IMG/VR virus record: IMGVR_UViG_2563366802_000007
Source: a virus
Lineage: Duplodnaviria > Heunggongvirae > Uroviricota > Caudoviricetes
DNA: 11,359 nucleotides
Direction: 5' to 3' (one strand)
Numbering within the stretch: the first letter of the stretch is position 1; each line of letters begins with the position of its first letter. The notes beneath the pieces are model-generated. The model did not search any database. It saw nothing but the letters and a program-made list of their open reading frames with translations, and was not told where the DNA came from. The position numbers were made by a program, and so were the translations under genes. Shown piece by piece: positions 1,653-11,359 of this stretch.

Positions 1653-2396
1653 ATGACACAGACTGAATCAGCGATTCTGGCACATGCCCGGCGGTGTGCG
1701 CCTGCGGAGTCGTGCGGCTTCGTGATAAGCACGCCGGAGGGGGAGTGGTATATCCCTTGTGTGAATATTTCCGCGGAGCCGGAGGCGTATTTTCGTATCG
1801 CACCGGAAGACTGGCTGCGGGCAGAGATGCAGGGGGAGATTGTGGCACTGGTCCACAGTCATCCCGGTGGGCTGCCCTGGCTGAGCGAGGCTGACCGGCG
1901 GCTACAGATAAAAAGCGCACTGCCCTGGTGGCTGGTCTGCCGGGGTGACATTCACAAATTCCGCTGTGTGCCACATCTGACGGGACGGCGCTTTGAGCAC
2001 GGGGTGACGGACTGTTACACGCTGTTCCGGGATGCTTATCATCTGGCGGGGACTGAAATGCCGGATTTTCATCGCGAGGATGACTGGTGGCGCAACGGCC
2101 AGAACCTTTACCTGGACAATATGGCGGTCACCGGCTTTTACCGGGTGCCCCTGTCCTCTGCACAGGCGGGCGATATTCTGCTGTGCTGCTTTGGTGCTTC
2201 GGTACCGAACCATGCCGCCATTTACTGCGGTAACGGTGAGCTGCTTCACCATCTGCCTGAACAACTGAGTAAACGGGAGAGGTATTCCGAAAAATGGCAA
2301 CGACGAACGCATTCTGTCTGGCGTCACCGCCACTGGCACGCATCTGCCTTCACGGGGATTTACAACGATTTGGCCGCCGCCTCAGCCTGTATGTGA
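1653..2396 (+). CDS. K: Tail tip assembly protein K (N-terminal MPN/JAMM-like domain plus C-terminal NlpC/P60-like domain)
   Basis: 247-codon frame from the first ATG after the L stop. JAMM-type motif HSHPGGLPWLSEAD (H-x-H-x7-S-x2-D) at nt ~1851-1895. NlpC/P60-type Cys (DCYTLF, ~2010) and His (PNHAAIY, ~2205). 3' end overlaps I by ~100 nt in another frame, as in lambda. Start is uncertain because there is no strong SD; the next in-frame ATG is at 1827. Confidence 0.8.
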   Translation: MTQTESAILAHARRCAPAESCGFVISTPEGEWYIPCVNISAEPEAYFRIAPEDWLRAEMQGEIVALVHSHPGGLPWLSEADRRLQIKSALPWWLVCRGDIHKFRCVPHLTGRRFEHGVTDCYTLFRDAYHLAGTEMPDFHREDDWWRNGQNLYLDNMAVTGFYRVPLSSAQAGDILLCCFGASVPNHAAIYCGNGELLHHLPEQLSKRERYSEKWQRRTHSVWRHRHWHASAFTGIYNDLAAASACM

Positions 2397-2974
2397 ACAC
2401 GGCAGCGGAAGCCATTCGCGCCCTGTCGATGCAGATGCCGGGCTTTCGCCGTCAGATGAACGAAGGCTGGTACCAGATACGTATTGCCGGTGATGACACG
2501 GCACCGGAGGCGGTGTACGCCCGTCTTCACGAACAGCTGGGTGAGGGAACGGTCATCCACATTGTGCCGCGACTGGCCGGGGCCGGAAAGGGTGGACTGC
2601 AGATTGTGCTGGGGGCGGCAGCCATCGTGGGCTCTTTCTTCACGGCCGGTGCCTCGATGGCGTTATGGGGTACAGCCCTGAGTGCCGGCGGTTTTTCTGC
2701 CACCACAATGCTGTTTTCACTGGGTGCCAGCATGATACTGGGCGGTGTGGCCCAGATGCTGGCCCCGAAGGCAAAAACACCGGATTACCGCGCAACGGAT
2801 AACGGCAGACAGAACACGTACTTTTCCTCGCTGGATAACATGATTGCCCAGGGGAACCCGATGCCGGTGCCTTACGGGGAAATGCTGGTTGGCTCCCGCC
2901 GTATATCCCAGGACATCAGCACCCGTGATGAAGGCGGGGGCGGAAAGGTCGTGGTTATCGGGCGGCAGGGGTAA
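2294..2974 (+). CDS. I: Tail tip assembly protein I
   Basis: 226-aa ORF with GGGAGAGG upstream. Ubiquitin-like N-terminal part, Gly/Ala-rich hydrophobic middle (GLQIVLGAAAIVGSFFTAGASMALWG) and conserved C-terminus (QNTYFSSLDNM...YGEM.VGSR) resembling lambda gpI as recalled. Confidence 0.85.
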   Translation: MATTNAFCLASPPLARICLHGDLQRFGRRLSLYVNTAAEAIRALSMQMPGFRRQMNEGWYQIRIAGDDTAPEAVYARLHEQLGEGTVIHIVPRLAGAGKGGLQIVLGAAAIVGSFFTAGASMALWGTALSAGGFSATTMLFSLGASMILGGVAQMLAPKAKTPDYRATDNGRQNTYFSSLDNMIAQGNPMPVPYGEMLVGSRRISQDISTRDEGGGGKVVVIGRQG

Positions 2975-3020
2975 AAAGAATAAAAAAATCCCGCAGTGAT
3001 CGCGGACAGGAACTGCGGGA
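2975..3020 (-). terminator. Rho-independent terminator on minus strand (stem 2989-2997 / 3012-3020, then U-run from the plus-strand A-tract 2975-2988)
   Basis: Plus strand reads AAAGAATAAAAAAA-TCCCGCAGT-(14 nt loop)-ACTGCGGGA. On the minus strand this is a 9-bp GC-rich stem followed by UUUUUUUAUUCUUUUU. There is no T-run after the hairpin on the plus strand, so it is directional (minus). Confidence 0.55.
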
Positions 3021-3078
3021 GAGTTACGAAGATTAAGTGTAAGGAATTATTCTTATATCACGACAAAAAAATTAACGC
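2980..3078 (-). ncRNA. Candidate small non-coding RNA (~100 nt) antisense to the late operon, in the I-J intergenic insert
   Basis: Bounded by a sigma70-like promoter (minus strand TTCACA-N16-TATAAT) and the minus-strand intrinsic terminator. No ORF with an SD fits between them. The local sequence is AT-rich relative to the flanking tail genes. Ends are predicted, not mapped. Confidence 0.3.
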
Positions 3079-3084
3079 AGAGAA

Positions 3085-3112
3085 ATTATACGCGCCACAG
3101 TCAGTTTGTGAA
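3085..3112 (-). promoter_or_regulatory. Putative sigma70 promoter on minus strand (-10 TATAAT = plus 3085-3090; -35 TTCACA = plus 3107-3112; 16-nt spacer)
   Basis: Reverse complement of 3085-3112 reads TTCACA aactgactgtggcgcg TATAAT: a perfect -10 hexamer and 5/6 match to TTGACA. Predicted TSS is near plus 3078. Confidence 0.35.
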
Positions 3113-3184
3113 AATGTGAAGATATTCAGAATTTTTATGCCATTACCGGTTTTAACCAACAGGATTATCGGTGGGCATGAAAGA

Positions 3185-3220
3185 AAACCCCGGTATCTGC
3201 TGATACCGGGGTTTCTCTTT
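3185..3220. terminator. Strong perfect hairpin (13-bp stem 3185-3197 / 3202-3214, 4-nt loop) with U-rich tails on both strands; possible bidirectional terminator or insulator
   Basis: AAACCCCGGTATC-tgct-GATACCGGGGTTT followed by CTCTTT on plus. On minus the hairpin is followed by UUUUCUUUC. It lies ~100 bp upstream of the J start. Confidence 0.45.
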
Positions 3221-3317
3221 AGCATGGCAGAAATGTGTTTCATGCTTTTCGGGCGAAGGATATCCGACTTCTGTACGGAATGGCAAGTGGCGGTTAATTT
3301 ATTCAGGGGAAGGCTGT

Positions 3318-6300
3318 ATGGGAAAAGGTGGCGGTAAGGCACACACGCCTCGTGAGGCGAAGGATAATCTCAAATCCACGCAGATGATGAGCGTGATTGA
3401 TGCGATTGGTGAGGGACCGATAGAAGGTCCGGTGAAGGGACTGCAGAGTATCCTGGTGAACAAAACCCCGCTGACGGACACGGACGGTAATCCCGTGATA
3501 CACGGTGTGACGGCGGTCTGGCGCGCCGGGGAGCAGGAGCAGACACCACCGGAAGGCTTTGAGTCCTCCGGTGCTGAAACCGGACTGGGCGTGGAAGTGA
3601 CGAAGGCAAAACCGGTGACGCGCACCATTACGTCCGCGAACATTGACCGCCTGCGGGTTACCTTCGGGGTGCAGTCACTGGTGCAGACCACGTCAAAGGG
3701 CGACCGTAATCCTTCCTCTGTCCGGATTCTGATTCAGTTACAGCGTAATGGCCGCTGGGTGACGGAAAAGGATGTCACCATTAACGGCAAGACCACCTCG
3801 CAGTTCCTGGCCTCGGTGATTCTGGATAATCTGCCTCCCCGGCCCTTTAACATCCGGATGGTCAGGGAGACGGCGGACAGCACCACGGACCAGCTGCAGA
3901 ATAAGACGCTGTGGTCGTCATACACCGAAATCATCGATGTGAAACAGTGCTACCCGAACACGGCCATTGTGGGGCTGCAGGTGGATGCGGAGCAGTTCGG
4001 CGGCCAGCAGATGACGGTGAACTACCATATCCGCGGTCGCATCATCCAGGTGCCGTCAAACTATGACCCGGAAAAACGCACGTACAGTGGTATCTGGGAC
4101 GGCAGTCTGAAACCGGCATACAGCAACAACCCGGCCTGGTGCCTGTGGGACATGCTGACTCACCCGCGCTACGGCATGGGAAAACGTCTGGGGGCGGCGG
4201 ATGTGGACAAGTGGGCGCTGTATGCCATCGGGCAGTACTGCGACCAGACGGTCCCGGATGGTTTCGGGGGGACCGAGCCGCGGATGACCTTTAATGCGTA
4301 CCTGGCACAACAGCGTAAGGCGTGGGACGTTCTCAGTGATTTCTGCTCTGCGATGCGCTGTATGCCGGTATGGAACGGCCAGACGCTGACGTTCGTTCAG
4401 GACCGTCCGTCGGATGTGGTGTGGCCGTACACCAACAGCGATGTGGTGGTGGATGATAACGGCGTGGGTTTCCGCTACAGCTTCAGTGCCCTGAAGGACC
4501 GGCACACGGCAGTGGAGGTGAATTACACCGACCCGCAGAACGGCTGGCAGACCTCCACGGAACTGGTGGAAGACCCGGAAGCCATACTGCGCTACGGACG
4601 CAACCTGCTGAAGATGGACGCGTTCGGCTGTACCAGCCGCGGTCAGGCCCACCGTGCCGGGCTGTGGGTGATAAAGACCGAACTGCTGGAAACGCAGACG
4701 GTGGATTTCACGCTCGGGTCACAGGGGCTGCGTCACACACCCGGTGACATCATTGAAATCTGTGATAACGACTATGCCGGGACCATGACCGGCGGACGTG
4801 TCCTGTCCATCGATGCCGCCAGCCGTACCCTGACGCTGGACCGGGAGGTGACACTGCCGGAGACCGGCACGGCCACTGTTAATCTGATTAACGGCAGCGG
4901 TAAGCCGGCGAGCGTGGCCATCACCGCACACCCCGCGCCTGACCGGATACAGGTCAGCACCCTGCCGGATGGTGTGGAGACATACGGTGTGTGGGGACTC
5001 TCCCTGCCGTCACTGCGTCGTCGCCTGTTCCGCTGTGTCTCCATCCGGGAAAACACGGACGGCACCTTTGCCATCACGGCGGTGCAGCACGTACCTGAAA
5101 AAGAAGCCATCGTGGATAACGGGGCCCGCTTTGAGCCGCAGTCAGGCACCCTGAACAGCGTTATCCCACCGGCAGTGCAGCACCTGACGGTGGAGGTGAG
5201 CGCAGCTGACGGCCAGTATCTGGCGCAGGCTAAATGGGACACGCCGCGGGTGGTGAAGGGCGTGCGCTTCAGTCTGCGCCTGACCAGTGGTAAGGGAACG
5301 GATGCCAGACTGGTGACCACCGCCATCACCGCAGACACGGAGCACCGTTTCAGCGGCCTGCCACTGGGGGAATACACCCTGACGGTGCGGGCCATTAACA
5401 GCTACGGCCAGCAGGGCGAACCTGCGACCACCACCTTCCGGATTGCCGCACCGGCAGCACCGTCGCGGATTGAGCTGACGCCGGGGTATTTTCAGATAAC
5501 GGCGGTCCCGCGTCTTGCGGTGTATGACCCGACGGTACAGTTTGAATTCTGGTTCTCAGAAAAACGCATCACGAACACAGCACAGGTGGAAAAATCTGCC
5601 CGTTATCTGGGGACCGGCAGTCAGTGGACTGTCCAGGGGAGCCGGATTAAGCCGGGGACGGATTTCTGGTTTTACGTGCGAAGCGTCAACCTGGTGGGAA
5701 AATCTGCTTTTGTGGAAGCCAGCGGGCAGCCCAGCAATGATGGTGAAGGGTATCTGGAAATTTTCCGGGGGCTGATAGATGAGACGCTTCTGGGCCAGGC
5801 ACTGAAAGAGCGCATTGATGCTTCAGCGCTGCGTACGGAGGTCACGCAACTGGAAGAAGACATCCGTCAGCGGATGGACACGGATATCGCAGAAGTGACC
5901 CGGAAAATCGGGAAGGCGGAAAACAGCCTCACGCAGCTGGTTGCGAAAAAGAATGAGGACCAGACACTGGCCATCGCGCAGGTGAGCCAGAAAGTGGACC
6001 GGGTGAGCAGTGAAATCTCACAGACTGTCAGCCAGGGGCAGTCAGAAAACGCCCGACAGATAGCACAGGTCCGCCAGTACGTGGATAAAAAAGGGAGTGA
6101 AATTACCTCGACCACGGATAAAAAGCTGGGTGACCAGGCCGTGACCATACAGCAAATCCAGCGGGTTCAGTCAGACACGCGCAATGAGCTGAATGCCATG
6201 TATATGCTGAAGGTGCAGAAAACAAAAAACGGTATTCCCTATGTGGCCGGGATTGGTGCGGGGATTGAGGATGTTGATGGTCAGACCCTGAGTAACATTC

Positions 6301-7010
6301 TGCTGCAGGCCGATCGCATTGCGATGATTACCCCGGAGAACGGCAACACCACGCCGCTGTTTGTGGCGCAGGGGAATCAGCTGTTCATGAACGACGTGTT
6401 CCTGAAGCGACTGTTTGCGGTGAGCATCACGTCATCCGGCAATCCTCCGACGTTTTCCCTGACGCCGGATGGCAGGCTGACAGCCCGCAATGCGGATATC
6501 AGTGGAGCCATCACGGCGAATACCGGCACGCTCAATAATGTCACCATTAACGAGAACTGTGTCATCAGAGGGAAACTGTCTGCAAACCAGATTGAAGGCG
6601 ATCTCGTTAAAACAGTGGGTAAGGCTTTCCCTCGTGACTCCCGTGCACCGAAGCGTTGGCCATCAGGAACCATTACCGTCAGGGTTTATGACGATCAGCC
6701 GTTTAACCGGCAGATTGTTATTCCGGCGGTGGCTTTCAGCGGTGCCAGACATGAGCGGGAGAACAGCGATACTTATTCGTCATGCCGCCTGATAGTACGG
6801 AAAAACGGTGCTGAAATTTATAACCGTACCGCGCTGGATAATACGCTGATTTACAGTGGTGTTATTGATATGCCTGCTGGTCGCGGCCACATGACGCTGG
6901 AGTTTTCTGTATCAGCATGGTGGGTAAATGGCTGGTATCCCACAGCAAGTATCAGCGATTTGCTGGTTGTTGTGATGAAGAAAGCCACTGCAGGCATCAC
7001 GATTAGCTGA
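3318..7010 (+). CDS. J: Tail tip / host specificity protein J (central tail fibre)
   Basis: 1230-aa ORF with GGGGAAGG SD. Conserved J-like N-terminal region, including the [16 protein letters not shown] segment. Two fibronectin-III-like segments (~nt 5160-5740), a heptad-rich charged segment (~5750-6230) and a C-terminal domain ending ...[14 protein letters not shown]. Same position as lambda J, but longer than the 1132 aa I recall for lambda. Confidence 0.9.
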
Positions 7011-7029
7011 ATTTTATAACCCCAATACG

Positions 7030-7056
7030 GGCGCCAGAAATGGCGCCTTTTTTATT
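7030..7056 (+). terminator. Rho-independent terminator downstream of J (stem GGCGCCA / TGGCGCC, loop GAAA, then TTTTTTATT)
   Basis: Perfect 7-bp GC stem 7030-7036 / 7041-7047 followed directly by T-run 7048-7056, 20 nt after the J stop. Confidence 0.7.
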
Positions 7057-7077: not shown

Positions 7078-7677
7078 ATGCGTAAAGTTTGTGCAGCCAT
7101 TTTGTCCGCAGCCATCTGTCTGTCCGTATCCGGTGCGCCTGCATGGGCGTCTGAACATCAGCCCACACTGAGCGCGGGGTATCTTCATGCCCGTACGAAC
7201 GCTCCCGGCAGCGATAATCTGAACGGGATTAACGTGAAATACCGTTATGAGTTTACGGACGCGCTGGGGCTGATTACGTCCTTCAGTTATGCCAATGCTG
7301 AGGATGAGCAAAAAACGCACTACAGCGATACCCGCTGGCATGAAGATTCCGTGCGTAACCGCTGGTTCAGCGTGATGGCGGGGCCGTCTGTACGCGTGAA
7401 TGAATGGTTCAGCGCGTATGCGATGGTGGGTGTGGCTTACAGCCGTGTGTCGACTTTCTCCGGGGATTATCTCCGCGTAACTGACAACAAGGGGAAAACG
7501 CACGATGTGCTGACCGGAAGTGATGACGGTCGCCACAGCAACACGTCTCTGGCGTGGGGGGCTGGCGTGCAGTTTAACCCGACCGAATCCGTAACCATTG
7601 ACCTTGCTTATGAAGGTTCCGGTAGTGGCGACTGGCGAACGGATGCATTTATTGTTGGTATCGGATACCGTTTCTGA
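7078..7677 (+). CDS. lom: Outer membrane protein Lom (Ail/Lom/PagC family beta-barrel; lysogenic-conversion moron)
   Basis: 199-aa ORF with GAGAGG SD. N-terminal signal peptide with AWA-S cleavage site. Alternating amphipathic beta-strand pattern and C-terminal ...GIGYRF ending in an aromatic residue, typical of beta-barrel OMPs. Sits at the lambda lom position between J and stf. Confidence 0.9.
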   Translation: MRKVCAAILSAAICLSVSGAPAWASEHQPTLSAGYLHARTNAPGSDNLNGINVKYRYEFTDALGLITSFSYANAEDEQKTHYSDTRWHEDSVRNRWFSVMAGPSVRVNEWFSAYAMVGVAYSRVSTFSGDYLRVTDNKGKTHDVLTGSDDGRHSNTSLAWGAGVQFNPTESVTIDLAYEGSGSGDWRTDAFIVGIGYRF

Positions 7678-7782
7678 CAACAGACGCCGATTTATCTTCT
7701 GTAAATATTGTTATGATACGCAGGTTCATCCACCTTATGGGGTGAACTGCGTTTGAGGAAACGTAAAGTTACACTGTCCTGA

Positions 7783-7817
7783 AGCCCGTGGCGTCACTGC
7801 TGCGGGCTTTTTTTATT
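7783..7817 (+). terminator. Probable rho-independent terminator downstream of lom
   Basis: AGCCCG...CGGGCT imperfect hairpin (7783-7808) followed by TTTTTTTATT (7808-7817), just upstream of the stf SD. Confidence 0.5.
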
Positions 7818-7828
7818 GGTGGAAAAGT

Positions 7829-10549
7829 ATGACAGTAAAAATTTCTGGCGTGCTTAAAGATGGCACAGGAAAACCAGTACAGAACTGCACCATTGTGCTG
7901 AAGGCCAGACGAACCAGCAGCACGGTGGTGGTGAACACGGTGGCCTCTGAAAATCCGGATGAAGCCGGACGTTACAGCATGGATGTTGAGCATGGCCAGT
8001 ACAGCGTCACCCTGCTGGTTGAAGGTTTTCCGCCTTCACATGCCGGGACCATTACCGTCTATGAAGGTTCCAGACCAGGTACGCTGAATGATTTTCTCGG
8101 TGCCATGACGGAGGATGATGTCCGACCGGAGGCACTGCGCCGCTTTGAGCAGATGGTGGAAGAGGTGTCACGTAACGCCTCCGCGGTTGCACAGAATACG
8201 GCAGCCGCGAAAAAATCAGCCAGCGATGCCAGTGCATCAGCCAGCGAGGCGGCAACTCATGCAACCGATGCTGCAGCCTCAGCACGTGCCGCCAGCACGT
8301 CAGCCGGACAGGCCGCGTCGTCGGCTCAGTCAGCGTCTTCCAGCGCAGGAACGGCATCGACAAAGGCCCGTGAAGCAGCAAAAAGTGCTGCTGCTGCAGA
8401 GTCATCAAAAAGCGCGGCAGCTACCAGCGCCAGTGCCGCGAAAACGTCAGAAACGAATGCCGCAGCATCACAAAAATCGGCAGCCACTTCTGCATCCACA
8501 GCGACCATGAAGGCGTCAGAAGCTGCCACCTCGGCACGGGGTGCGGCGGCCTCAAAAGAGGCAGCGAAATCTTCAGAAACGAATGCATCATCAAGTGCCA
8601 GTAGTGCAGCTTCCTCGGCAACGGCGGCAGGAAATTCCGCGAAGGCGGCAAAAACGTCCGAGACGAACGCTAAGTCTTCTGAAACAGCAGCGGGACAGAG
8701 CGCCTCAGCTGCGGCAGGTTCAAAAACAGCGGCTGCATTATCTGCCAGTGCCGCGTCAACAAGTGCCGGGCAGGCCTCAGCCAGTGCCACCGCCGCCGGA
8801 AAATCGGCAGAAAGCGCCGCATCATCCGCTTCAACAGCCACAACGAAGGCTGGCAAAGCCACTGAGCAAGCCACTGCAGCAGCGAGGTCTGCTTCTGCAG
8901 CAAAAACCTCTGAAACAAATGCAAAGACTTCAGCAGACAATGCTGCTTCCTCTAAGGCGGCAGCCGCATCGTCAGCCAGTTCAGCGGCGTCATCGGCATC
9001 ATCTGCGTCTGCTTCAAAAGATGAGGCGACCAGACAAGCGTCAGCAGCGAAAGGTAGTGCCACGACAGCAACAACGAAAGCATCAGAGGCGGCAGGCAGT
9101 GCGACGGCTGCATCTCAGAGCAAAGTTGCTGCTGAATCCGCGGCAACGCGCGCCGAGACAGCAGCAAAACGGGCAGAGGATATTGCATCCGCCGTGGCGC
9201 TGGAGGATGCGAGCACGACGAAAAAGGGGATAGTACAGCTCAGCAGTGCAACAAACAGCACCAGTGAAAAGCTGGCGGCAACGCCAAAGGCAGTTAAAAC
9301 TGTTAAAGATAGTTCAGTTCAAAAAACTGGCGACACAATGGGAGGGCAGTTAAAAATCAGCACGATAAATGCTCTTCGAATATTCAACCAAGCCTTTGGC
9401 CTTATTTTTAGGCGTTCCGAAGATCATCTTCATCTTATTCCGACTAATGAAGGGGAGGGGGAAAATGGAGACATCGGTTCATTAAGACCATTCTCTATAA
9501 ACTTAAGATCAGGGTTGGTGTCCATCGGTAATGGACTAAAAGTTGGTGGTAGTGTTACTGGTAATTTGACCGGAAACGCAGATACTGCGACCAAGATCAA
9601 GACAGCACGTAAGATTGGGGGCGTGGCATTTGATGGATCGGCAGATATCAACTTGCCTGGAGTCAACGCTACCGGTAATCAAAACACTACAGGTAATGCT
9701 GCGACCGCCACGAAACTTCAGGCAGCCAGAACGATTAACGGTGTGTCATTTGATGGTAGTGCAAATATCACATTGACCCCTTCAAATATTGGGGCATTGG
9801 CATTAACTGGAGGGACTCTTTCAGGTGGTTTAACTGCTGCTGGTGAGGTTATTTCAAGGTCAGCAAATGGTCTGCGTATTGCCTATGGCAACTATGGATT
9901 CTTTATCCGAAATGATGGATCAAACACATATTTTATGTTGACAGATTCGGGTAACAGTCTTGGTACGCACAATAGCTTAAGGCCGTTTATAATTAGTAAC
10001 CATACTGGCAATGTTACAATTGCAACTAAATTAAACGCGAGTGGTGGTATCACTGGATCTTTATCGGGTAATGCAAGCACAGCAACCAAATTGCAAACTG
10101 CAAGGACAATTAACGGCGTAAAATTTGACGGCTCGGCAAATATTGAAGCGTTTCCGCCAGGTGTTCCGCTGCCGTGGCCATCAGATACACCACCTGCAGG
10201 TTATGCGATCATGCAGGGGCAGACGTTTGATAAGGCAGCATATCCGAAACTGGCTATTGCCTATCCTTCAGGTGTTATTCCAGATATGCGCGGCTGGACA
10301 ATCAAGGGCAAACCCGCCAGTGGCCGGGCCGTATTGTCTCAGGAACAGGACGGCATAAAATCGCACACCCACAGCGCCAGCGCATCCAGTACGGATTTGG
10401 GGACGAAAACCACATCGTCGTTTGATTACGGCACTAAATCCACGAATAACACCGGGGCGCATACGCACAGTCTGAGTGGCTCTACGGGGTCTGCCGGTGT
10501 TCATACTCATGGTAATGGTATTCGTTGGCCCGGAGACTTCTTCCTATAG
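7829..10549 (+). CDS. stf: Side tail fibre protein Stf, main reading frame (ends prematurely relative to the conserved C-terminal tip; see 10476-10775)
   Basis: 906-aa ORF with GGTGGA SD. N-terminus ([20 protein letters not shown]...) resembles lambda Stf as recalled. Long Ala/Ser-rich low-complexity region, then three tail-fibre repeats, then a C-terminal part resembling the lambda Stf tip (PWPSD...[34 protein letters not shown]...). Frame terminates at TAG 10547-10549 inside the His-rich tip region. Confidence 0.85.
8180..9210 (+). repeat. Ala/Ser/Thr-rich low-complexity coding repeat within stf (recurring AAKTSETNA-type units)
   Basis: About 340 codons dominated by GCN/TCN/ACN codons. The motif A-K-(T/S)-SETNA recurs at least four times (nt ~8440, ~8566, ~8645, ~8897). 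It generates spurious long ORFs in other frames and on the opposite strand. Confidence 0.8.
9569..10150 (+). repeat. Three copies of a ~29-aa phage tail-fibre repeat within stf
   Basis: [29 protein letters not shown] (9569-9655), [29 protein letters not shown] (9689-9775) and [29 protein letters not shown] (10064-10150). The pattern resembles the Pfam 'phage tail fibre repeat' family found in T-even/P2/lambda-type fibres (assignment from memory). Confidence 0.7.
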
Positions 10550-10775: not shown

Positions 10776-11359
10776 TGGCATTCAGAATGAGTGAACAAGC
10801 ACGGACCATAAAAATTTATAATCTGCTGGCCGGAACTAATGAATTTATTGGTGAAGGTGACGCATATATTCCGCCTCATACAGGTCTGCCAGCAAACAGT
10901 ACCGATATTGCACCACCAGATATTCCTGCTGGCTTTGTGGCTGTTTTCAACAGTGATGAGGCATCGTGGCATCTCGTTGAAGACCATCGGGGGAAAACGG
11001 TTTATGACGTAGCGTCAGGGGACGAGTTATTTATTTCTGAACTCGGTCCGTTACCGGAAAATGTTACCTGGTTATCGCCGGAAGGGGAGTTTCAGAAGTG
11101 GAACGGCACAGCCTGGGTGAAGGATACGGAAGCAGAAAAACTGTTCCGGATCCGGGAGGCGGAAGAAACAAAAAACAACCTGATGCAGGTAGCCAGTGAG
11201 CATATTGCGCCGCTTCAGGATGCTGCAGATCTGGAAATTGCAACGGAGGAAGAAACCTCATTGCTGGAAGCCTGGAAAAAGTATCGGGTGTTGCTGAACC
11301 GTGTTGATACATCAACTGCACCTGATATTGAGTGGCCTACGAACCCTGTCAGGGAGTAA
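10775..11359 (+). CDS. tfa: Tail fibre assembly protein Tfa (chaperone for Stf)
   Basis: 194-aa ORF ending exactly at the window end (TAA 11357-11359). Sequence [34 protein letters not shown]... closely resembles lambda Tfa as recalled. Start is coupled to the stf C-terminal frame. Confidence 0.9.

Follow-up and report, generated by a model that had tools for sequence, protein, structure and literature searches.

A predicted Hfq-dependent small RNA gene of the PasB/EcOnc22-24 family in the gap that separates tail genes I and J in a lambdoid prophage

What occupies the DNA between tail genes I and J in a lambdoid E. coli prophage where the two genes lie 343 bp apart? We address this question for IMGVR_UViG_2563366802_000007, an IMG/VR virus record (Caudoviricetes), of which a stretch of 11,359 nucleotides was analysed as a whole (hereafter the window). 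According to its list of open reading frames (ORFs) and their Pfam domains, the window is the tail end of the late operon of a lambdoid prophage. Tail assembly gene I (2294..2974, + strand; Lambda_tail_I, E 1.8e-16) is followed by a gap at 2975-3317 and then by the tail tip and host-specificity gene J (3318..7010, + strand), which is recognized by seven J-specific Pfam domains, including Ig_J, FNIII-A_GpJ, Phage-tail_3 and Ig_GpJ_C. In phage lambda (NC_001416), 60 bp separate the end of I (15444) from the start of J (15505), which agrees with the spacing given in a preliminary description of the window. The GC content is 0.40-0.47 inside the I-J gap versus 0.55-0.65 in the flanks, so the 343-bp AT-rich gap of that description also holds. 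The gap sequence is present in 1662 of 5426 complete E. coli genomes, with no annotated feature under it in RefSeq among the matches listed. We propose, with a probability of roughly 0.85, that the minus strand from 3078 to 2982 is the gene for a Hfq-dependent, trans-acting base-pairing small RNA (sRNA) of about 85-97 nt, which belongs to the PasB/EcOnc22-24 family. Judged from its sequence, the locus is a divergent, unsurveyed allele of this experimentally known family. The preliminary description had seen a candidate prophage sRNA here; the short, intrinsically terminated minus-strand sRNA gene stands, but it is not new, as experiments had already revealed the family in 2014 and 2021.

The gap contains a complete promoter-terminator module on the minus strand. 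The sigma-70 promoter (3085..3112, -) consists of the -35 element TTCACA (3112-3107), a 16-nt spacer and the -10 element TATAAT (3090-3085), and scores 11/12, as the sole match of at least 11/12 on both strands of the whole window. A promoter of this quality arises in just 14 of 2000 dinucleotide shuffles of the gap, and a scan of 2700-3600 found no sense-strand sigma-70 promoter of at least 9/12. The intrinsic terminator (2982..3019, -) lies about 97 nt downstream of the promoter and is formed by an 8-bp stem, CCCGCAGU (3019-3012) paired with ACUGCGGG (2997-2990), a 14-nt loop, a single A and a U7 tail (2988-2982). This stem was taken directly from the sequence, and the promoter/terminator scan gave a shorter alternative stem. 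On the plus strand, the hairpin has an A run before it and no U run after it, and it therefore terminates minus-strand transcription only. The 3´ end of the sRNA is 8 nt from the stop codon of gene I (TAA, 2972-2974). Folding of 2981-3078 (-) forms the terminator hairpin with a mostly unpaired body (-19.4 kcal/mol, z -2.3). Both the minus-strand TTCACA-N16-TATAAT and the GC-rich hairpin with a U run some 100 nt downstream had been pointed out in the preliminary description, which also proposed the folding. The module is confined to about 2975-3139, and the remaining ~178 bp (3140-3317) are a different segment; alignments of the gap resolve it into the sRNA gene and an alternative J-leader segment, and the idea that all 343 bp are one insert has to be given up.

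The identity of the sRNA is indicated by two groups of experimentally defined RNAs. PasB (alias E2348CN_0006) is an 83-nt sRNA of enteropathogenic E. coli (EPEC) O127:H6 E2348/69 (Pearl Mizrahi et al. 2021, PMC8550237; Zhu, Shabalina & Storz 2026 preprint, doi 10.64898/2026.05.13.724894), which is encoded at NC_011601 1466343->1466261 (-) in prophage PP6, between E2348C_1436 and E2348C_1437 (PMC8550237 table S6). In RefSeq, its flanks are tail assembly protein I, which ends at 1466255, and gpJ, which starts at 1466496. PasB gave a Northern signal of the predicted size with the probe AATCCCGCAGTGATCGCGGAGCT (PMC8550237). This probe aligns to 2987-3009 of the window at 20 of 23 positions, where 0 such matches are expected by chance. 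A covariance model that draws on four PasB-type alleles and the Sakai EcOnc22 only, with window-type alleles excluded, matches the window at 3078->2982 (-) from end to end (model positions 1-98) with 59.6 bits and an E value of 3.6e-11 when the filters are off; the next match scores 10.1 bits. The window sRNA thus resembles the experimentally defined members in sequence and structure over its full length. It also shares their layout in E2348/69 and Sakai, within the I-J gap, antisense and abutting the stop codon of I. Its promoter is homologous to that of PasB, with the same hexamers, spacing and upstream block, and its terminator stem CCCGCAG/CTGCGGG is followed by U7, where at least 6-7 U are asked of a family member. 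Homology, synteny and an intact promoter and terminator are established here for the window allele.

The second group comes from enterohaemorrhagic E. coli (EHEC) O157:H7 Sakai, in which crosslinking and analysis of cDNA (CRAC) with Hfq identified EcOnc22 (Sp15), EcOnc23 (Sp14) and EcOnc24 (Sp11), which form a single group of homologues (Tree et al. 2014, PMC4104026 table S2). EcOnc22 is crosslinked to Hfq, runs at ~85 nt on Northern blots and is destabilised in the hfq deletion (PMC4104026). The coordinates of all three RNAs fall within 240-bp I-J gaps of Sakai (NC_002695.2), which are mutually identical (L127 1492-1731 for Sp15, L128 823-1062 for Sp14 and L129 873-1112 for Sp11). The first 23 nt of the EcOnc22 probe (GGGAGAGAACGATGAAGATTAAC...) match the sense strand adjoining the terminator hairpin, and the probe therefore detects an antisense RNA. 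The coordinates of table S2 refer to an earlier version of the Sakai record, and a shift of 122-150 nt is needed to bring the probe inside the read cluster. Version 1 of NC_002695 is presumably 128 nt shorter than version 2 (5,498,578 bp), and the positions in table S2 run about 128 nt below those of NC_002695.2. On sequence grounds, EcOnc22/23/24 and PasB are the same locus family. This link is absent from both PasB papers: the note field of table S6 is empty (PMC8550237), and EcOnc is never mentioned in the 2026 survey (doi 10.64898/2026.05.13.724894). Looking at other lambdoid prophages and sRNA records, as the preliminary description had advised, thus leads from the same I-J locus to both PasB and EcOnc22/23/24.

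The window allele lies beyond the reach of the existing PasB survey. Bacterial genomes were searched there with a word size of 28 and a coverage of >75%, and phages with a word size of 11 and a coverage of >50% according to the Methods, or >75% according to the Results and the legend of figure 6; the PasB variants recovered differ by 'a few nucleotides' (doi 10.64898/2026.05.13.724894). With the 83-nt PasB query, blastn finds no match in the window at a word size of 28, and at a word size of 11 it finds a single 25-nt high-scoring segment pair (30% coverage); the longest exact word common to query and window is 25 nt. By the strict filters of the survey, the window allele is not a PasB, and its class was therefore outside the survey. 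PasB-2 of the survey (change at position 27) corresponds to the C27A allele of phage ASU11 and the PPompW phages.

Among the 5426 complete E. coli genomes, the window type is present in 800 (985 places; 613 records at least 99% identical), the PasB type in 956 (999 places) and the EcOnc22 type in 542 (1246 places, often two to three copies each). The three classes together amount to ~3,200 copies, and no annotated feature is found at these loci in RefSeq among the matches listed. A scan of IMG/VR with a conserved promoter word retrieved at least 120 loci with at least 30 distinct alleles in a mosaic pattern, of which the window allele is the commonest (35 of 118 loci); Stx2c phages carry a close relative of it. 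The -10 box of these 118 loci reads TATAAT in 86, AATAAT in 30 and GATAAT in 2. The mean pairwise identity is 0.83 for the sRNA body, 0.905 for the 3´ end of I and 0.93 for the 5´ end of J, so that the body is more variable than the adjacent coding ends; the corresponding value for the promoter is biased by retrieval with the promoter word itself. Carriers of the window allele include human clinical isolates, ST648 (sequence type 648) among them, and one carrier of a PasB-type allele is labelled ST131, in both cases among the matches listed. E. coli SaT040, ML35, MS7163 and SK1144 are examples of strains that match the window allele at 100%. When one genome per species was searched with the exact promoter word, only E. 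albertii and a 3.4-kb 'Streptomyces' contig were found, which gives no evidence of the family outside Escherichia. That contig (L125, NZ_JBHTEB010000006.1, 'Streptomyces flavalbus', 3408 bp) bears an E. coli-type I-J sRNA locus with a long J leader, and is most likely a contamination of the Streptomyces assembly.

The family has no counterpart in Rfam. No credible match appears in the I-J gap when the whole window is searched at the gathering score, and a search of 2900-3400 with E values up to 10 returns generic terminator look-alikes only, the best being SSRC34_2 with 27 bits against a gathering score of 48. The Rfam search that the preliminary description had called for is thereby answered. 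A full-text literature search with the terminator sequence found no paper.

The predicted primary transcript (2982..3078, -) is 97 nt long and is delimited by the -10 box at its 5´ end, the covariance model match, the family alignment and the probe match. Its 5´ end at 3078 is a prediction from the -10 box with an uncertainty of ~15 nt. As PasB is annotated to begin 15 nt further downstream than the predicted start site, the mature 5´ end could by homology be close to 3063; the Sakai read cluster, after the coordinate shift, begins ~6 nt past the predicted start. The first 15 nt (3064..3078, -) form a conserved 5´ leader, GCGUUAAUUUUUUUG, which is found in all alleles (columns 1-16 of a 20-allele alignment; family consensus GCGUUArUGUUUUUU) and may be removed in the mature RNA. 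The leader is followed in the family by a variable stretch, an A-R-N-like run, the anti-Shine-Dalgarno-like yUCCUU with AAUCUUC, a variable linker and the terminator. In the window allele, the AU-rich body (3020..3063, -) is unpaired in the centroid fold and contains the (ARN)3 stretch AAGAAUAAU (in PasB, the A-rich run is AACAAAAACAAC), the anti-Shine-Dalgarno-like UUCCUUACAC and the family-conserved core UUAAUCUUCGU; this body may serve as Hfq distal-face site and as seed. Across 20 alleles and the Sakai EcOnc22, two blocks, AAyUCyyU and AAUCUU, are conserved. Of 20 aligned alleles, 19 have the 7-bp stem CCCGCAG/CTGCGGG unchanged, and the L006-type allele has a shorter stem; the stem encloses loops of 4-14 nt and is followed by U6-8.

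How such an RNA would act is suggested by its relatives. The RNA-seq level of PasB falls in the hfq deletion by log2 fold changes of -6.8 under activating and -2.4 under non-activating conditions (100-fold and 5-fold drops), its longest reported U tract is 7, and its baseMean of 482 (activating) and 1082 (non-activating, the higher level) compares with 4.8 for I and 15 for J (PMC8550237). RIL-seq, in which interacting RNAs are ligated and sequenced, recovered 37 partners of PasB, of which 30 are coding sequences or 5´ untranslated regions (5´UTRs), four are 3´UTRs or intergenic and none is an sRNA; PasB is the second RNA in 99-100% of the chimeras, and at least 98% of the partner fragments are core-genome (PMC8550237). 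For the window allele itself, we infer expression, Hfq contacts, seed and targets. As a moron between I and J, the gene runs antisense to the late operon and has a constitutive-type sigma-70 promoter and an intrinsic terminator of its own. Because it has both, it could be expressed in a lysogen in which the tail genes are silent. The terminator hairpin with the U7 tail, and probably the A-R-N stretch, would bind Hfq, and the unstructured AU-rich, partly anti-Shine-Dalgarno-like body would pair with the 5´UTR or coding sequence of mainly host core-genome mRNAs, with the conserved yUCCUU/AAUCUUC region as the putative seed. The 2026 survey places the seed of PasB in the single-stranded stretch just upstream of the terminator (doi 10.64898/2026.05.13.724894). 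Except for AUCUUC, this stretch differs between the two alleles, and the target sets of the window allele and PasB may therefore differ.

Several observations weigh against this assignment. Expression, size and Hfq dependence have been demonstrated for the E2348/69 and Sakai alleles only, and the window allele is identical to PasB in only 77 of 104 aligned columns (~74%, with four indel blocks). The proposed seed beside the terminator reads AAUCUUCGUAACUCU in the window and GAUCUUCAUUUGUCUGU in PasB; with the overall divergence, this means that the partners of PasB are not transferable to the window allele. In the other alleles, the mapped 5´ ends are displaced downstream by 6-15 nt from the start that the -10 box predicts. 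The fold of the PasB allele has an unremarkable z-score (-0.7), and RNAalifold on 20 alleles retains the terminator stem only, which is invariant and contains no compensatory change. Finally, no function has been assigned to PasB or EcOnc22-24 in the literature (Zhu et al. 2026 preprint, doi 10.64898/2026.05.13.724894; PMC7873438).

The alternative that survives best, which we nevertheless consider unlikely, is a cis-antisense regulator of the late operon, which during lytic growth could tune the J:I ratio, either by RNase III cleavage of the late mRNA paired with it or by transcriptional interference, in the manner of lambda OOP and may coexist with a role in trans. The sRNA is convergent with I and fully complementary to the I-J spacer of any read-through late transcript; the locus is always at exactly the I-J junction in more than 118 phage loci of three allele classes, and a sense-strand hairpin is always on the J-proximal side. 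However, the sRNA overlaps neither the coding sequence of I or J nor the ribosome-binding site of J, as it ends at 2982, short of the I stop (2974), and begins at 3078, far from the J start (3318). The overlap with an opposite-strand coding sequence or ribosome-binding site that marks OOP-type RNAs is missing, with the J ribosome-binding site 240 nt away. Moreover, PasB is abundant in E2348/69 while I and J are nearly silent, at least 98% of its Hfq-ligated partner fragments are core-genome, and a cis-only role leaves the Hfq dependence unexplained.

An anti-sRNA or sponge that titrates a host sRNA, as AgvB does GcvB or AsxR does FnrS, was one of the functions suggested in the preliminary description, and sponging is known for other EHEC prophage sRNAs (PMC4104026). 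One chimera of PasB involves a pasA-adjacent intergenic RNA. The evidence from the family makes this function improbable for the window sRNA: none of the 37 RIL-seq partners of PasB is an sRNA (table S5), Rfam finds no AgvB or AsxR match even at a permissive E value, and the conserved 42-nt 3´ module of the AgvB/AsxR group is missing. The site is also different, namely I-J instead of the PR' moron site. An identity with AgvB or AsxR (RF02702, RF02703) was rejected for the same site and sequence differences and the lack of a Rfam match up to E 10 in 2900-3400.

Still less probable is a non-functional relic or an architectural element, such as an insulator or a recombination scar, that yields no consequential RNA. 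The 20-allele alignment shows no covariation, the mosaic alleles speak for frequent recombination, and no function has been assigned in any strain studied; against these points, the near-consensus promoter and the U-run terminator are kept in all 30 IMG/VR alleles despite a mean body divergence of 17%, and two other alleles yield abundant Hfq-bound RNAs. A small protein gene can practically be dismissed, as the preliminary description had already argued, because the open frames that the gap does hold (a 66-aa 'hypothetical protein' of phage ASU11 at 3137-3337 (+), and 113-aa (+) and 94-aa (-) ORFs) match no Pfam family, lack a Shine-Dalgarno sequence ahead of ATG 3137, cross a -32 kcal/mol hairpin, occupy a segment missing from E2348/69, Sakai and Stx2c phages, bear no RefSeq PGAP annotation among the full-length matches listed, and are disrupted in relatives, in which one-off J-leader lengths of 197, 193 and 151 nt (vs 198) shift the frame of the ASU11-annotated ORF.

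The remainder of the gap is a long-form J leader ('module B'; 3140..3317, +), which is separate from the sRNA gene and carries two hairpins ahead of the J Shine-Dalgarno sequence. Hairpin 1 spans 3137-3178 (+). Hairpin 2 has a GC core at 3188-3211 with an A tract on one side (3180-3187) and a U tract on the other (3212-3220). This bidirectional terminator-like palindrome is stronger than the sRNA terminator hairpin and was not mentioned in the preliminary description. The sense fold of the long leader has -41.3 kcal/mol and a z-score of -5.5. A sense-strand sRNA ending at the hairpin at 3188-3211 was sought, and no sense promoter was found upstream. The long leader occurs in 1446 of the 5426 E. 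coli genomes, is at least 99% identical in 1442 of 1451 records, and has no annotated feature among the full-length matches listed. Counted from where the promoter search word ends (3123) up to and including the J start codon, the leader has 198 nt in the long form and 95-96 nt in the short form. The short leader, found in E2348/69, Stx2c phages and Sakai, has a different sense-strand GC hairpin and U run at the same spot. One IMG/VR locus (L058, 2671180417_000014) has a clean 47-nt deletion of exactly the long-leader palindrome, between the direct repeats GAAAGAAA / GCAGAAA, and is a natural knock-out.

The junction between the two segments is the conserved promoter-upstream block (3113..3139), which is near-invariant in the alignment of the window and PasB gaps and holds a second TTCACA copy at 3120-3115 (-). 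This block is the breakpoint that separates the sRNA gene from the alternative J leaders, and both leader forms diverge directly after ...AGAATTTTTAT. Both sRNA classes are found with the long leader, which places the recombination breakpoints in the block. The -35 element belongs to a tandem TTCACA-TT-TTCACA repeat (3107-3120, -), which is kept in PasB-type and window-type alleles and could be a regulator site or an alternative -35. As a tentative extension, to which we give slightly less than even odds, the I-J junction may be a recombining 'sRNA cassette' site, in which the promoter, leader and terminator are conserved and the body is swapped among at least 30 alleles of three classes (PasB, EcOnc22 and window), each retargeting Hfq-dependent control to other host mRNAs. 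If so, the regulon of the window-type allele, which is common in extraintestinal lineages, would not be that of PasB. PasB and EcOnc22-24 have so far been regarded as unrelated in the literature, and the window class was overlooked.

What is new here is the divergent unsurveyed allele, the link between PasB and EcOnc22-24 and a larger census of the family; the known picture of prophage moron sRNAs is extended, not changed. Rfam lacks a model for this abundant, Hfq-bound sRNA family, which goes by two unconnected names in the literature. Because the window allele escapes the settings of the PasB survey, the prevalence of the family and its extraintestinal link are underestimated. A silent prophage that supplies a high-occupancy sRNA to the host Hfq network could change host physiology or virulence, and allele-specific bodies would make such an effect strain-dependent.

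The rest of the window follows the lambdoid order. By their Pfam matches, L (944-1642) and K (to 2396; JAB and NlpC/P60 domains) precede J, and lom (7078-7677), the side tail fibre gene (7829-10549) and the tail-fibre assembly gene (from 10775) follow it. Strong sense-strand intrinsic terminators at 7029-7048 (+) and 7781-7810 (+) flank lom (Ail/Lom), a classic moron layout 3´ of J. A full-length match to Rfam IS009 (RF02111; 225 bits) at 11118-11316 (+) lies wholly within the tail-fibre assembly ORF (Caudo_TAP), so that the 'RNA family' is probably a stretch of coding sequence in this case. Two sub-threshold isrG (RF01390) matches, at 8577-8825 (-) and 8862-9170 (-), are antisense in the side tail fibre gene and score 25-26 bits against a gathering score of 100. 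Within 9300-10100, the C-terminal part of the same gene, the GC content falls to 0.385-0.47, which suggests a mosaic, horizontally exchanged receptor-binding segment.

Among known systems, PasB is the closest. It shares with the window allele the I-J site, the antisense orientation, TTCACA-N16-TATAAT, the upstream block, the 5´ leader, the terminator stem with U7 and the core motifs yUCCUU and AUCUUC; the flanks of the window sRNA also resemble those reported for PasB in their IS009 and isrG-like Rfam matches. It differs, beyond its sequence divergence, in the J leader, which is the short form of ~80 nt at the PasB locus and the 178-nt long form in the window. EcOnc22-24, which are ~85-90 nt, Hfq-bound and Hfq-stabilised, have in common with the window allele the antisense I-J locus, the terminator stem and the core AAUAACUCC..UUAAUCUUC. 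Their promoter region is unlike that of the window, with a -10 AATAAT, TTCACA 24 nt upstream and no good -35, and their body is different. The OOP RNA of lambda is a 77-nt antisense RNA with its own promoter and terminator, which overlaps the 3´ end of cII and acts in cis via RNase III. Like OOP, the window sRNA comes from a short module of promoter and terminator that is antisense to phage mRNA in a genome of lambdoid type; unlike OOP, it overlaps no coding sequence, and its relatives act via Hfq on host mRNAs. AgvB and AsxR are likewise short, Hfq-binding, prophage-encoded RNAs convergent with late transcription, and form allelic series in which the 5´ part varies and the 3´ part is conserved, but they are located downstream of Q/stx, are 51-60 nt long and unrelated in sequence, and sponge GcvB or FnrS.

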